DNA from: Sedimentisphaerales bacterium
Lineage (GTDB): Bacteria; Planctomycetota; Phycisphaerae; Sedimentisphaerales; SM23-30
NCBI GenBank assembly: GCA_963666285.1
Contig: OY762711.1
DNA: 64,000 nucleotides
Strand: one strand, 5' to 3'
Shown here: piece by piece, positions 10,255-64,000 of the stretch
How the letters are laid out: every line of letters begins with the position of its first letter
How positions within the stretch are numbered: the first letter of the stretch is position 1
Notes under the pieces: model-generated
Database searches by the model: none
Told to the model about the DNA's origin: nothing
The model's input: the letters and a program-made list of their open reading frames with translations, nothing else
Translations under genes and position numbers: made by a program

Positions 10255-11670
10255 ATGATGAAAAAACTAATGATTGTTCTTTTTATTTTAGTGCTGTTAG
10301 GTTTAATTGGCTTTGCAGCTATTAAACAGAGTGAGGCTAATAAAGACAGGTCGGTAAAGGTACGTGTAAATAAGCCTGAATTAGGAAAACTTGTTGAAAC
10401 CATTAGTGCTCCTGGTGAAATCAAACCACTTCATAGTGTTACTATTAGCGCTAAAATCTCAGGTAAGGTTATTGAACTGCCGTTTGAAGAAGGTGACGCC
10501 GTCTTTGGACCAGAATCTGGTCGTGAACCTTCAGTTCTGGTAAATATTGACAGTAGCGACCTGGAATCTGATCTTAATATCAGCCAGGCCCGTCGTGAAT
10601 CCCAGGTTATGCAAATTGAAGTTGCCAAGGTTGATATTGAAAACAGGGAATCCAGCCTTCGCGAAGCAGAAATTCAGCTTGCCCAAAAAGAAAAAGACCT
10701 GGAACGTAGTTTGAAGCTGCTGCAAAGTAACGATGTCACTGAAACTTCAGTTGAAGAGCTGCAGGTTGCTGTTGAACAGTTAAAGATCAAGGTTAAATCT
10801 AGCCAGAATGCAATTAAGGTTGCTAAAGTTGACTTGAAAGTGAGGGAAAATGAGCTAAAAATAGCTGATTCCAATATCCAGAGAGCCAAAGATGCCTTGG
10901 AATATGCCGAAATTTCTTCGCCTATGTCAGGTGTGATTACTCAGATTCATGTGAAAGCCGGCGAGATGGTAACTGGTGCCGTTAATTATACCGGTACTCC
11001 TATGATGGTTGTTGCCGATCTGTCAAAGATGCTATTAGCCGCAAAGGTTGACGAAATTGATATTGGCAAGGTTAAAGAAGGGCAAAAAGCCAAGGTTAAG
11101 CTTCATGCCTGGCCGGATGAAAGATTTGAAGGGGTTGTTCATAAGAAATCGCTGGTTTTGCTTGACAGCCGCACCGGTTCAAAGGTGTGTGATGTTGAGA
11201 TAATGCTGGATAATGCCGATGGCCGTATACTTTCGGGCATGACAGCTGATGCTGAGATTGAAATTAAAGTTCACGAAAACATTTTGACTGTCCCGTCACA
11301 GTCAGTTCTTGGTTGTGAGTGGGAAACGCTTCCTAAAGAAATTCGTGATGGCAGCGAGCTTATAAATAAGGAAAAAACATATACTCCAGTTGTTTTCCGT
11401 CTTATTGATGGCAAAGCTCATGCTACTCCTGTCAGGATTGGTCCAAGTGATCTTACAAATACTGTAATCGAAGCCGGACTTTCAATAGATGACCTGGTTG
11501 TGACAGGCCCTTATAAAGAGCTTGAACAAATGAATCATGGCAAGATAATCAAGGATGAGAATGCTAAAGAGGATAGGCAGGGCGATAAAGACTTCGCTGA
11601 CAAAGCTGATGACCAGGAGGTCGATAAAGATAACTCAGAAGATAGCCAATCAGAAGAACCGGTTCAGTAA
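10255..11670 (+). CDS. MacA-like periplasmic adaptor of an ABC exporter
   Basis: N-terminal TM, ISAKISGKVIEL, coiled coil, ISSPMSGVI, VDEIDIGKVKEGQ, GMTADAEI. The start is chosen at MMKK; the ORF track extends to 10201. Confidence 0.85.
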   Translation: MMKKLMIVLFILVLLGLIGFAAIKQSEANKDRSVKVRVNKPELGKLVETISAPGEIKPLHSVTISAKISGKVIELPFEEGDAVFGPESGREPSVLVNIDSSDLESDLNISQARRESQVMQIEVAKVDIENRESSLREAEIQLAQKEKDLERSLKLLQSNDVTETSVEELQVAVEQLKIKVKSSQNAIKVAKVDLKVRENELKIADSNIQRAKDALEYAEISSPMSGVITQIHVKAGEMVTGAVNYTGTPMMVVADLSKMLLAAKVDEIDIGKVKEGQKAKVKLHAWPDERFEGVVHKKSLVLLDSRTGSKVCDVEIMLDNADGRILSGMTADAEIEIKVHENILTVPSQSVLGCEWETLPKEIRDGSELINKEKTYTPVVFRLIDGKAHATPVRIGPSDLTNTVIEAGLSIDDLVVTGPYKELEQMNHGKIIKDENAKEDRQGDKDFADKADDQEVDKDNSEDSQSEEPVQ

Positions 11671-60509: not shown

Positions 60510-60912
60510 GAACCAGACTCTGAAGTATAGGTTAAACGCATCTTGCTATCTCGGACACACTAGTGGAAATATGTACATATAAAATTACATAACCCTTGTA
60601 AGGATATAAGGACTTTTTTAGATATGCTGTTTCTCTGGAAACAGTTTTTATTGAGTGGGAAACTAGGCAGAAATTGGACAGGGGACTGGGGAGGTTTGTC
60701 TTGGAATGGACAAGGCTGAGTGGGGGAGATTTATCAAGTCATTATTGTAATGTCTGGGGATGGGCATTAAAGTATAAGTTGATATCCCATCGTTATTTAA
60801 GTCTTTTAGGAAAGTATATATATTATGAGTATGATAAAGTTGCTGGTGAAAAAAATAAAGTTAAAATAATGTATGTTAAGAAATATTGTGAGATAGCATT
60901 ATAACTATAGTG

Positions 60913-61413
60913 ATGAAAATAACAGAAAATAAAATTTTAGAGATTTTGCTCAAGAGTCGTATGAAACTTACTGCTTATATACGTACTATTGTAGGGGATT
61001 TTCATTGTGCAGAGGATGTTTTCCAGGATGTTTCCATGAAAGCAATTCGCTCAAGTGAACAATTTAAAGATATAAAACATCTCGAGCGTTGGCTTTGGGT
61101 TGTATGCCGCAACGATGCGTTAATTAAGCAGAGAGAACAAAAGAAATTACCTGTTTTTATAGACAAAGATATATTGGATTCAATTCATGATGAGTTCCAG
61201 AAAACAAACCTTTATGATTTAAATGATACAGAAATAAAATTAGAGAAATGTTTAGGTAAGTTAACAGGTTTCTCCAGAAAACTGATCATGTTGAGATATC
61301 GTAAGAACTTAACTGGGCAAAAGCTAGCAAAAGAGCTGAATAGAAAAGTAGAGTCGATCTATGTAGCTTTGAGCAGGACTCATAAGACTTTACGAGAATG
61401 CATGAAGAGGTAA
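60913..61413 (+). CDS. ECF-type sigma-70 factor (planctomycete/verrucomicrobial type)
   Basis: Region 2 LTAYIRTIVGDFHCAEDVFQDV...WLWVVCRN; region 4 CLGKL...LIMLRY...LAKEL...VYVALSR...LRECM. Confidence 0.9.
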   Translation: MKITENKILEILLKSRMKLTAYIRTIVGDFHCAEDVFQDVSMKAIRSSEQFKDIKHLERWLWVVCRNDALIKQREQKKLPVFIDKDILDSIHDEFQKTNLYDLNDTEIKLEKCLGKLTGFSRKLIMLRYRKNLTGQKLAKELNRKVESIYVALSRTHKTLRECMKR

Positions 61414-61436
61414 TTAGCCAAAATGCTGGATAAAGT

Positions 61437-63170
61437 ATGAACCAGAAAAACGACAAAGAAATAAAAGACAAATTGGAAGAATTTGATTCACTTGTATATG
61501 CCTACTTTGATGGTATGGTAGATATACAGCAAATGGATGTCTTAAAACAATATTTGAGAGAAAAGTCATATGTTCGCAGGTTGGTAGATCTTTGTAGGCA
61601 CGACCAGTTGATTTATGAGTTAATGTCTTATGATGAACAGACGTTAGGTGATATTGAAACAAAAGTCTTTAGTGAAATCAAAGACGAAGGTAGTGTTTTA
61701 AAGGATTTAATTGCGTTAGAGCAGAATTCACCTGCAATTGAAATCCATAGCGAAGAGAAAAATATTGAAATCATATCAGAAATAGTTGAAAAAAAACAAT
61801 CTACGGGGAAATTTATTAAGTTGTATAATCGGATGATTTATATAGCTGCTGTATTTATGGTCATATTTATCGTTTATGCTAATGTTTTCCCCCCGCAATT
61901 ATCTGAAGAAGTAGCAACAGTGGTTGATCAATTGGATGTTAAGTGGGATATTTCTTCAGCTAAGCTAAAAAATGGTGAAAGAATACTAACTAATCAGTTG
62001 CCTTATAAGGTTGAGAAAGGGATAGTTAAGTTTTCTTATGATGAAGGAGTCGATGTTGTTATAGAAGGGCCAGCAGAGTTTACCGTAGAAAAGAAAGGTA
62101 TAACAATATCCAAAGGTCTTTTGTACTCGTATGTTTCAGAAGTTGGTCAAGGATTTACTGTAGATACTCCCAATAATCGGTTTATTGACCATGGCACAGA
62201 ATTTGGTGTTTATGTTGATCAAAATGCAACATCAGAGCTTCATGTTTATACTGGTGCAGTGCAATATTACTCCGGAATAAAAGGAGCTCCTAAGGCCAGT
62301 AAGACAATTAGAGCAAATAATGCTAGAAGGTTTGATGCAGATTCTGGGCAAATTCAAAATATACGAGTTGAAGAGAATTTCTTTGCCAGAGATGTAAATT
62401 CAAAAACAGGTATAATATGGCGTGGTCAGGATATAGATTTGGCAGATATTGTTGGCGGTGGTACTGGCTTCGGAGGTGGCGAGCTGGAAAGCGGTATTGA
62501 CGTTGAAGATGGTCAGTGGAAGAATAAGGAAGTGCTGTATAGACAAAACTTGAGTGTCGGATGGATAAGATATAGTGACAATAAATATAATAAGGTTCCA
62601 ACTATAGATTATATTGATGGTGTATTTGTTCCATATGATGCTAATGGTCCGGTTCAACTTTCATCAAAAGGGCATAAATATTCTGGTTTTCATGTAGGTA
62701 GTAACGAGCACTGGAACAATATTTGCTTTGGTGCCTGGCATGAATCAAGTCATGCACCTAAGCATAATTTGAGCTCTGAAGGTATAACTTATGGTTTAGA
62801 TAGTGATACGGCTGCAATTACAATACATTCCAATCAGGGAATTACTTTTGACTTAGATGCGATCAGGAAAAATATACCTGAAAGAAGAATCTCTAAATTT
62901 ACAACAAAAGTAGCGATTTCAGAATCGATATTATTTTTTGGCAAGGAAGACGGTGTCGAAGAAAATCCTTCAAAGGTTGACTTCTGGTGTTTTGTCGATG
63001 GCGAGCTAAGAGATAAGCAAGAAGGTATTACATATAGAGACGGGCTGGTTGAAGTTGAAATAGTCCTGGATGACAACGAAAGATATTTAACGCTCGTTGT
63101 AACAGAATCTGATGATAAATGTAGTTTTGACTGGGCTTTTCTTGCAAGACCGGTATTGGTTGTAGAATAA
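61437..63170 (+). CDS. FecR-domain anti-sigma factor with C-terminal NPCBM-like domain
   Basis: Cytoplasmic N-domain, TM (YIAAVFMVIFIV), FecR motifs GVDVVIEGPAEF, GFTVDTP, DHGTEFGV, LHVYTGAV; DLADIVGGG; HSNQGITFDLDAIR; RYLTLVVT..D...DW. Confidence 0.85.
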   Translation: MNQKNDKEIKDKLEEFDSLVYAYFDGMVDIQQMDVLKQYLREKSYVRRLVDLCRHDQLIYELMSYDEQTLGDIETKVFSEIKDEGSVLKDLIALEQNSPAIEIHSEEKNIEIISEIVEKKQSTGKFIKLYNRMIYIAAVFMVIFIVYANVFPPQLSEEVATVVDQLDVKWDISSAKLKNGERILTNQLPYKVEKGIVKFSYDEGVDVVIEGPAEFTVEKKGITISKGLLYSYVSEVGQGFTVDTPNNRFIDHGTEFGVYVDQNATSELHVYTGAVQYYSGIKGAPKASKTIRANNARRFDADSGQIQNIRVEENFFARDVNSKTGIIWRGQDIDLADIVGGGTGFGGGELESGIDVEDGQWKNKEVLYRQNLSVGWIRYSDNKYNKVPTIDYIDGVFVPYDANGPVQLSSKGHKYSGFHVGSNEHWNNICFGAWHESSHAPKHNLSSEGITYGLDSDTAAITIHSNQGITFDLDAIRKNIPERRISKFTTKVAISESILFFGKEDGVEENPSKVDFWCFVDGELRDKQEGITYRDGLVEVEIVLDDNERYLTLVVTESDDKCSFDWAFLARPVLVVE

Positions 63171-63250
63171 AATAGCTCGATTTCAAGTATTCGTCAAATA
63201 TGTTTAGGCAGTATGGTTTCTTAATAATGAATAAAAGAAGAGAATGGTAT

Positions 63251-64000
63251 ATGAGAGCGCCAAGCGAAGCTAATGTAGTCAAGCCGGCCAATCCGGCATG
63301 GGTAAGGGCTAGCCACCCGCCCATTACAGCACCGGGCGTGCAGAGAGGTAACGAACTGTACGAAGCCCCGGGAAAGGAGTTTGTCAGCCACAACGCAAGT
63401 GAAGGTGTTGAGCCCCGAAATTATTCCTTATCGCATCCGGGCCAGGGTTTTCATATGCCTGAAGCCAATATCGATATATGCGAAATACGGCGAGCATCTA
63501 TCGACGAGCCGGGGTCTGAGTCCGTAGCGGGCAAACGAACTGACTGCATTGGAACTTGGGAGAACCGAAGTGCTCCGAAAGGAAGCGGCCAAGGAGCTGA
63601 AACCGTGACGCGGCCGTATGGCATTTTGGTAGTCGGACTGACTCATAGTAGAGGAGTAAACAGGGTAATGCCTGTTGAGTTTCGAAGTTTGAGGCACTCG
63701 AAGGGGTCAGCATTAATGTGTAAAGGCGAAACAGGATATTGGCCAGGCACTGAACTGGAAGAAACCATGAACGTTCCACAGCGTCTTCTATCGGATACTT
63801 CTACAAGGCACATTACTTTGCCTTATGTAGCCGTCAAAGTGAGCATTAATGAAGAGCCGGATGAGGGAAATCTTCAAGTCCGGTTCAGTGAGGGGCATGC
63901 GTTTCCTTGCACAAAATATAATGAAACTCAGAATTTGTTAAATTAATGAAAGGAGGCGACATGCCTACTCGACAAAAAAGAGGTTTTACATTAATTGAAT
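63251..64000 (+). CDS. Intron-interrupted prepilin-type (GFTLIE) gene, 5' part: join(63251-63254, 63974->64000)
   Basis: Ligated exons read ATG AAA AAA AGA GGT TTT ACA TTA ATT GAA = MKKRGFTLIE, the class III signal start of DUF1559-like proteins. It follows the ECF/FecR pair and runs off the window. Confidence 0.8.
63255..63973 (+). mobile_element. ORF-less group IIB self-splicing intron (719 nt)
   Basis: 5' GAGCG-CCAAG, with CCAAG pairing CTTGG (63555-63559); EBS1 TCATAT (63451-63456) is complementary to 5' exon ATATGA; D2 63564-63630; D3 63638-63710; short D4 63711-63851; D5 GAGCCGGATGAGGGAAATCTTCAAGTCCGGTTC (63854-63886, AGC triad, GAAA loop); D6 with bulged A 63967; 3' end AC. Confidence 0.9.

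Follow-up and report, generated by a model that had tools for sequence, protein, structure and literature searches.

At the 3' end of a 64,000-nucleotide (nt) stretch of contig OY762711.1 from a Sedimentisphaerales bacterium (assembly GCA_963666285.1), referred to in its whole length as the window, a gene for a prepilin-type protein is interrupted one nucleotide past its start codon by a group II intron. The intron is 719 nt long and of the type termed ORF-less (ORF, open reading frame). Read from the host start codon, the ribozyme is free of stop codons up to domain 6 (D6), where the frame ends just ahead of a start codon that the intron itself supplies in phase with exon 2. The features of the locus are listed below (SD, Shine-Dalgarno sequence; IBS and EBS, intron-binding and exon-binding site; MFE, minimum free energy; aa, amino acids).

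63235-63243, plus strand: host SD-like purine-rich stretch AAGAAGAGA, about 8 nt 5' of ATG 63251 (from the sequence)
63250-63254, plus strand: IBS1 UAUGA, the end of exon 1, made of host ATG 63251-53 and the first base of codon 2 (common block of eight copies, alignment)
63251-63946, plus strand: stop-free exon-1 frame, 231 codons and TAA (ORF listing)
63255-63973, plus strand: ORF-less group II intron (Rfam RF02005 and RF00029; eight copies with identical ends)
63288-63524, plus strand: match to Rfam RF02005, group-II-D1D4-6, part of domain 1 (112.2 bits, cut-off 49)
63424-63429, plus strand: candidate EBS2 UUCCUU, located in an internal loop of domain 1, whose complement AAGGAA occurs in the 5' flanks (by eye)
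63643-63647, plus strand: EBS1 UCAUA, pairing at five of five positions with UAUGA; its CAU reads the start codon (sequence pairing)
63854-63886, plus strand: domain 5 (Rfam alignment, MFE fold)
63889-63973, plus strand: D6, enlarged to 85 nt (Rfam alignment, MFE fold)
63900-63908, plus strand: CGUUUCCUU in the D6 5' strand, predicted partner of the intron SD (masking strand; MFE fold)
63944-63948, plus strand: TAATG, in which the exon-1-frame stop overlaps an ATG in the exon-2 frame (from the sequence)
63949-63956, plus strand: intron-borne SD AAAGGAGG (from the sequence)
63961-63963, plus strand: intron-borne ATG, 13 nt 5' of the 3' splice site and in phase with exon 2, MPTRQ-KRGFTLIE.. (from the sequence)
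63974-64000, plus strand: start of exon 2; the spliced gene, MKKRGFTLIEL.., encodes a 271-aa prepilin-type protein that extends past the window (TIGR02532)

The intron and its start-codon target

Covariance models identify the element as a group II intron, with domain 1 (RF02005) and domains 5/6 (RF00029; 63852-63973, 52.3 bits, cut-off 40) both above their gathering scores; a Rfam scan of the window gave no further match at gathering score besides the group II intron models. In the MFE fold, A 63967, the seventh base from the 3' end, is the predicted bulged branch A of D6. Every copy in the source genome starts with GAGCG, where relatives have GUGCG or GUGUG at the aligned position; the GAGCG variant recurs in the metagenome relatives L207, L209 and L251. 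The 3' end ..CCUACUCGAC falls at 63973, and its ..CGAC agrees with the AY rule. Introns in other genomes begin ..ATGA/GUGCG and all end ..CUACUCGAC/A (slash, splice site), those of the source genome beginning ..ATGA/GAGCG; because the ends of the relatives align with the window copy, the boundaries were set at 63255 and 63973. Exon 1 thus provides no more than ATG 63251-53, a single A after it and the host ribosome-binding region before it, with exon 2 following from 63974. An initial annotation of this DNA had described a ribozyme read in the exon-1 frame into D6; that part of the anatomy stands, while its 'exon 1' shrinks to the ribosome-binding region plus ATG-A, in front of an intron at 63255-63973.

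The source genome holds eight near-identical copies, whose common 725-nt block corresponds to window positions 63250-63974 and which differ at three sites in total; as just three sites vary, the eight copies represent a single evolutionary sample. Seven of them sit before ORFs of 86-515 aa, whose spliced products start MK.. or MN.. and mostly have signal peptides. For the interrupted gene of the window, the spliced protein scores 32 bits against TIGR02532 (prepilin-type N-terminal domain; cut-off 16.3). The exception, L008 (G000:C1:5266366-5267090), is not at a plausible gene start: a GGATGAA tandem repeat adjoins it, and its spliced frame has five codons only.

EBS1 (UCAUA) pairs with (U)AUGA, and insertion therefore splits codon 2 after its first base. 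The pairing covaries in L031, in which an ACG in IBS1 is matched by CGU in EBS1. An AAGGA- or GGAG-like stretch lies at the same distance upstream at all eight insertion sites. In a scan of metagenome contigs, whose search pattern fixed only ATGA and the 5' end of the intron, an SD-like motif occurred at -16 to -4 in 60 of 76 relatives, compared with 7 of 71 control windows. We conclude that this intron lineage homes to translation start sites. Ribosomes must enter the intron, since only 1 nt separates it from the host start codon and an SD-like stretch precedes that codon.

Two side observations concern the target. AAGGA is found 4-9 nt 5' of UAUGA at six of the eight insertion sites (L001-L008); UUCCUU at 63424-63429 could be an EBS2 for the host SD, or AAGGA could merely be the SD of any start site. 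In L319 and L323, members of a sister clade described below, exon 1 ends not in AUGA but in GUGA and UUGA, respectively, with alternative start codons; either end would still pair with EBS1 by way of G-U.

No RT (reverse transcriptase) gene lies inside the window intron, and related RT-encoding introns are present in the same genome. L010 and L011, two 85-86% identical copies, carry a 443-aa RT/maturase gene (TIGR04416, 339 bits), whose product probably acts in trans on the window intron. A decayed ORF-less copy, own_L009, is found in the same genome as well.

The exon-1 frame and the start signal in domain 6

The ORF listing contains an ORF at 63200-63946, which from ATG 63251 comprises 231 sense codons followed by TAA 63944-46 and TGA 63947-49, as the initial annotation had stated. 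Within the 725-nt block (G+C 0.50) the exon-1 frame contains no stop in its 231 codons, compared with 20 and 15 in the remaining sense frames. Of 20,000 shuffles that preserved dinucleotides, not one was stop-free (mean 11.0 stops, minimum 1), in line with the rarity that had been claimed for the open frame; the mononucleotide expectation is 5×10−6. Pfam finds no family in the window peptide, nor in those of the database relatives P0002 and P0005 or of the sister-clade intron L081, and the absence of RT or maturase motifs from the window peptide is thereby confirmed. The frame ends 2 nt before the intron SD and 14 nt before the D6 ATG.

The intron ends with one codon base, as exon 1 does, and ATG 63961 is therefore in phase with exon 2. 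This spare start signal is widespread. In 71 related 3' ends, drawn from many bacterial phyla and archaea, an ATG lies 13 nt (46 ends) or 16 nt (19 ends) before the splice site in 65; either spacing keeps the phase of exon 2. In 61 of these 65 an SD-like motif lies ahead of the ATG, and A is the first exon-2 base in 62 of the 71. In the MFE fold of the window copy, CAUG 63896-99 is predicted to pair with the D6 ATG. Among relatives, the predicted D6 folds have the AUG fully paired in 50 of 58 distinct sequences and at least 75% of the SD paired in 38 of 54. With SD and ATG predicted to be paired in D6, a translating ribosome would therefore unmask them.

The last A of TAA 63944-46 is also the first base of ATG 63946-48, which lies 15 nt before ATG 63961-63, so that the two share the frame of the prepilin exon (..KRGFTLIE). 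The overlap was thus read correctly at the outset, and so was the use of TAATG elsewhere in the window: it joins long ORFs at 11668 (plus strand; 500 and 237 codons), 41126-30 (minus strand; 218 and 761 codons) and 46603-07 (minus strand; 160 and 650 codons). The geometry is that of translational coupling, with the stop at 63944-46, the SD at 63949-56 and ATG 63961 behind it, and with ATG 63946 overlapping the stop. As a restart signal, TAATG fares less well: the overlap exists in the window copy, but ATG 63961 with its SD at 63949-56 is the better candidate restart site, and the counterpart of ATG 63946 in relatives is out of frame because it is 16-17 nt from the D6 ATG.

Departures from the usual D6 start were noted in a few relatives. 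L072, L088, L089 and L117, from one WOR-3 metagenome-assembled genome (MAG), and L083 have ACG in place of the D6 ATG; C is the first exon-2 base in four of these five copies, and L117 and L083, whose 5' ends are seen, do not follow ATGA. L132 has TTG in place of the D6 ATG. In exon 2 of L135, on an ANME-1 contig, the 3' end ..CTACTCGAC is followed 14 nt on by a second, ..CTATGGGCTCTACTCGAC, the tail of a like intron; L135 is a putative nested or tandem insertion.

We propose the following course of events for unspliced RNA. Ribosomes loading at ATG 63251 would read the whole ribozyme in one frame and, in passing, would open up the 5' strand of D6, the predicted pairing partner of the intron SD and ATG. 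Termination at TAA 63944-46 would be followed by a restart at ATG 63961 (or 63946). The restart product would be the prepilin with the leader MPTRQKRG instead of MKKRG, the last intron base taking the codon position of the exon-1 A; the prepilin leader would in any case be lost should the protein be cleaved, as is usual, ahead of the FTLIE motif. Given read-through and restart, the host protein could therefore be made without splicing. Ribosome traffic would moreover keep translated transcripts from folding as a ribozyme, and only untranslated ones would splice and move. We infer that such run-through and restart occur at this locus. A search for RNA runs of the organism found none, four RNA runs containing at most 0.08 of the sampled words; the reads aligned came from contigs and included no exon-exon joint.

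The frame in the sister clade and in other relatives

A sister clade belongs to the same Rfam family as the window intron. L081, an ORF-less intron of 647 nt from a Dehalococcoidia MAG, and L111, a 1967-nt intron with an RT from a Syntrophoarchaeum MAG, each have one in-frame stop, a TGA overlapping the D6 AUG. We searched the L081 peptide in six frames, reading through stops, against 79 genomes of the class to which the L111 genome belongs, and 30 genomes matched. All seven near-full-length matches were stop-free (59-70% identity), and of the 26 matches that covered 140 residues or more, 21 had no stop (49-70% identity), four had one and one had three.

In seven complete ORF-less introns, each from a different genome (593-686 nt, 79-94% nt identity), the only in-frame stop is one that overlaps the D6 start (AUGA or GUGA), compared with 15-20 and 9-13 stops in the other frames; summed over the seven, there are 0 stops in the exon-1 frame compared with 124 and 81 in the other two. 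All seven lengths are 2 mod 3, with differences of 15, 30, 39 and 93 nt, and in L081 a 1-nt insertion is offset, 31 columns away, by the deletion of 43 nt. Variable columns were distributed over the codon positions without third-position bias (55/186, 64/185 and 52/186). With a random new base at the varied sites, 4.3 stop-creating changes were expected and none was seen (P about 0.013). At the level of sequence, these comparisons show that selection keeps the frame stop-free in the sister clade. The initial annotation had proposed an alignment of homologues as a test, and in this clade, though only here, the outcome agreed with it: the frame stayed open despite substitutions and indels, with no bias among codon positions.

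In ORF-bearing members of the sister clade the RT itself lies in the exon-1 frame, which is open for 652 codons in L111 and 653 in L323. Among 68 protein clusters with a ribozyme-coded N-terminus, 50 are 569-661 aa long with RVT_1, compared with 443 aa for the unfused RT; the search that gave the 68 clusters can find only proteins with a ribozyme-coded extension.

Elsewhere the frame is mostly closed, and this, together with the further points in this paragraph and the next, weighs against read-through and restart as a selected function. In a sample of 57 metagenome introns at ATGA sites (loci with at least 500 nt of intron), 54 have their first in-frame stop within 49 codons, most commonly at codons 5, 11, 20, 30 and 36, and three stop at codons 152-166; the 18 complete introns of the metagenome sample include none with an open frame. 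The 13 relatives first examined all stop after 5-51 codons, among them the ORF-less own_L009, the autonomous L010/L011 (5 codons) and the ORF-less L032 of a related genome. The ORF-less L225, L243 and L136 are likewise closed, and so are L136/L329, L328, L331, L341 and L342 of the sister clade itself. The initial annotation had itself named commonly occurring stops in homologues as the finding that would count against it, and most homologues have them; its claim that selection keeps the intron translatable is only partly supported, by the sister clade and by P0002, but not by most relatives, which stop early.

The exon-1 frame is also stop-poor in relatives, with 3-6 stops in the first 480 nt compared with 8-17 and 3-12 in the other frames, and the open frame of the window copy is therefore less surprising. 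In a tree, the branch of the window copy measures 0.022, compared with 0.13-0.14, and a removal of stops can therefore not be shown. We dropped a parsimony argument for such removal, built on two stops common to own_L009 and L010/L011, because the tree leaves three lineages unresolved. The in-frame TAATG overlap is not kept in relatives. Exon 2 of three of the seven ORF-less sister introns has only 7-19 codons, and host expression can therefore not preserve the frame in every copy. Ribosome passage is expected to hinder ribozyme folding. Furthermore, introns usually bar ribosomes with a stop placed in frame directly behind the 5' splice site (PMC3073962). Most relatives of the window intron do the same; the family of the window intron and the sister clade are the opposite over the whole intron.

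For the own clade of the window intron, the evidence comes largely from proteins. A search of a protein collection with the 231-aa peptide gave 252 matches with 102 representatives. P0002 (230 aa) is 70% identical over 230 residues, with identical first and last residues and the same start and stop, which speaks for a frame kept by selection. The end ..INEEPDEGNLQVRFCEGH..LLN is common to a further 36 clusters, 190-201 aa long and with pairwise identities of 0.80 (median) and 0.58 (minimum), and the C-terminal part was matched by only 17 shorter pieces. Against selection on the frame from the host ATG, these 36 clusters begin at an internal ATG in domain 1, and most ORF-less relatives of the own clade have a frame open from an internal ATG. 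In a neutral simulation 11% of frames were left open at 0.80 identity and 3.5% at 0.69, so that 36 clusters against 17 short pieces is only about twice the rough neutral expectation. The protein-database counts of open and broken frames are only suggestive of selection, because gene calling and length windows bias them.

At the DNA level, a six-frame search of 401 genomes of the phylum for the own ORF-less clade gave, outside the source genome, only short, stop-containing matches in five genomes. Among 132 genomes around a Scalindua-type handle, five had matches and none a full-length member, and the genomes of four named loci yielded no useful own-clade DNA. Contigs with the ORF-less form were found in a second organism (organism B, runs X8 and X10), and none of the eight listed differences makes a stop. 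Five of the eight lie at third codon positions and four are synonymous in the exon-1 frame, numbers that are too small for a test.

Many relatives have open stretches of 110-166 codons in any exon-1 phase; the underlying anchor-based comparison of frames is confounded by indels past the anchor and was used only for the frequency of long open stretches. In the RT-bearing L175, L083, L030/L042/L049, L183, L031, L214 and L246, an open stretch of 115-166 codons (domains 1-3) ends 0-20 nt from the RT start. The junctions read aATGAtg in L175, TAATG in L083, TAA-ca-ATG in L030 and TAA-c-ATG in L183. By raw count, 14 of 47 introns with an RT-size ORF had a segment of 80 codons or longer whose end lay close to the RT start. 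To judge by these junctions, the RT of RT-bearing relatives looks translationally coupled to the upstream frame.

The open frame may be a neutral by-product: in a stop-poor lineage, one recently amplified master copy would have been open by chance, and protein would be made only after splicing or by independent initiation in D6. The early stops in 54 of the 57 sampled and all 13 close relatives favour this explanation, as do the few stops of relatives in this frame (3-6 over 480 nt), the long open stretches in whatever phase and the three variable sites among eight copies. In addition, diverged copies of the source genome gain stops at about the neutral rate, and the first-stage reader that drew attention to the frame selects outliers. 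Chance would, on the other hand, have to account for a frame that no shuffle left open. Even at the stop density of the family (about 4 in 160 codons), the Poisson probability of no stop in 231 codons is roughly 0.003. The end of the frame also coincides exactly with the conserved start region of D6. In P0002, at 70% identity, start and stop are unchanged, a level of divergence at which about 3.5% of frames stay open in the neutral simulation, and constraint on a frame of this architecture is demonstrable in the sister clade. We regard the neutral explanation as possible but doubtful.

Alternatively, the frame could be a relic of an autonomous ancestor whose RT was read from the host start through domains 1-3, an in-frame deletion of the RT having left a lane without function. 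The fused architecture of L111, L323 and the 50 long clusters exists, and the phase of domain 5 is identical in the window copy and L111 (..EEPDEG..QVRF). Yet the nearest autonomous copies, in the source genome itself, have a separate RT start with four in-frame stops upstream of it, and an RT remnant in domain 4 (..LNWKKP, then a stop) is, by eye, in another phase than the open frame. The ORF-less sister introns, moreover, kept their frame through 6-21% nucleotide divergence and several indels after RT loss, and we consider a relic unlikely. That the 231 codons encode a functional protein overlapping the ribozyme is very improbable, despite the length of the ORF and its 252 database homologues (102 representatives). 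A variant domain 5 helix, compensated throughout, in P0002, P0039, P0041, P0046 and P0047, reads EEPVAGNPHGGF instead of EEPDEGNLQVRF, a clear case of RNA covariation visible in a translated frame; six residues change at once, with radical substitutions, and therefore it is the RNA and not the protein that is conserved. The lack of a third-position excess in the sister clade, where conservation follows the RNA, and the absence of a Pfam family point the same way, and on these three grounds a real protein in this frame was rejected.

We infer that the open frame in the family of the window intron was kept by selection and not inherited by chance. Whether the stop-free frame, with read-through and restart, is a selected function of that family we judge to be evenly balanced. 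A wider generalisation is offered tentatively, as one that falls short of probable: introns colonising start codons in bacteria and archaea would have made the ribozyme a translated spacer cistron, in which ribosomes read domains 1 to 6, stop in D6 and restart at the unmasked intron start, their traffic deciding on folding, splicing and mobility; some archaeal members would have an RT fused to it.

Relation to known systems and significance

In the yeast mitochondrial cox1 group II introns aI1 and aI2, the RT frame is continuous with the upstream exon and runs through domains 1-3. As there, ribosomes from the upstream exon would read domains 1-3 in frame, and the RT of the sister clade is fused in the same place. 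The hosts here, in contrast, are bacteria and archaea, the 'exon' consists of a start codon and one base, the frame ends in D6 at an intron-borne host start, and ORF-less members keep the lane without an RT. An exon-fused RT frame of the mitochondrial type is present in L111 and L323; the window intron has no RT, and in L010/L011 the exon-1 frame closes after five codons and the RT starts from an ATG of its own. Termination-reinitiation coupling at overlapping or adjacent stop and start codons (ATGA, TAATG) is familiar from prokaryotic operons. The arrangement described here resembles it in that an upstream stop lies at, or at most 15 nt from, a downstream start masked by RNA pairing. It differs in that the upstream cistron is a catalytic RNA without protein function and that the gene's own start is joined to a replacement start.

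Bacterial group II introns are generally taken to avoid coding genes, as coupled translation disturbs ribozyme folding. A specialised IIB1 lineage, exemplified by Avi.groEL and EcKTE56.groEL, resides at or beside initiation and termination codons (Michel et al. 2007, as summarised in PMC12584367); its defining feature is an insert of 300-700 nt towards the 5' end of domain 1. Both lineages are tied to start or stop codons, the groEL introns replacing a split stop codon. In contrast to that definition, the window intron is 719 nt in all, its Rfam domain-1 match starts 34 nt from the 5' end, and it aligns with its relatives from the first base without such an insert. The summary in PMC12584367 describes no D6-borne start or translated ribozyme for the IIB1 lineage, although the original account of Michel et al. 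2007 may differ. Group IIC-attC introns have internal, outward-oriented promoters, according to the available part of PMC3001079, and are thus likewise mobile introns with an expression signal for the downstream gene; theirs is a promoter, with an attC hairpin as target, whereas here the signal is a ribosome-binding site with an in-phase start codon and the target a start codon. Only three target specificities of bacterial introns are listed in the accessible text of a review (PMC4424553). Our full-text literature search found neither a D6-borne SD or ATG nor a translated bacterial or archaeal ribozyme, which may exist in print, for example in Michel et al. 2007 (Biochimie). The same holds for D6-borne SD or ATG and translated bacterial ribozymes in the accessible parts of PMC12584367, PMC4424553, PMC3073962, PMC8643678, PMC3753933 and PMC2882425.

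Immediately upstream of the interrupted prepilin gene, at 60910-63170, the window contains a 167-aa ORF that by eye resembles an extracytoplasmic function (ECF)-type sigma factor. The same region holds a 577-aa ORF placed like an anti-sigma factor, again judged by eye from the translations.

For annotation, introns of this kind yield spurious 'hypothetical proteins' and chimeric gene models. Database models of the latter sort are P0131, P0146, P0150 and P0187. P0131, named a glycosyltransferase, has ribozyme-coded residues and an RT N-terminus at its start, and in P0146 and P0150 a host ORF continues, without change of frame, through an ORF-less intron as far as the stop located at the D6 start.

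The lineage occupies the start codon itself and brings a replacement start. In at least one branch the whole ribozyme is stop-free in the entering frame and the RT is read from the host start codon. If run-through and restart take place as proposed, a mobile intron would be harmless to its host gene independently of splicing, and translation would be tied directly to splicing or mobility. The system would then be a prokaryotic parallel to the exon-fused intron genes of mitochondria.

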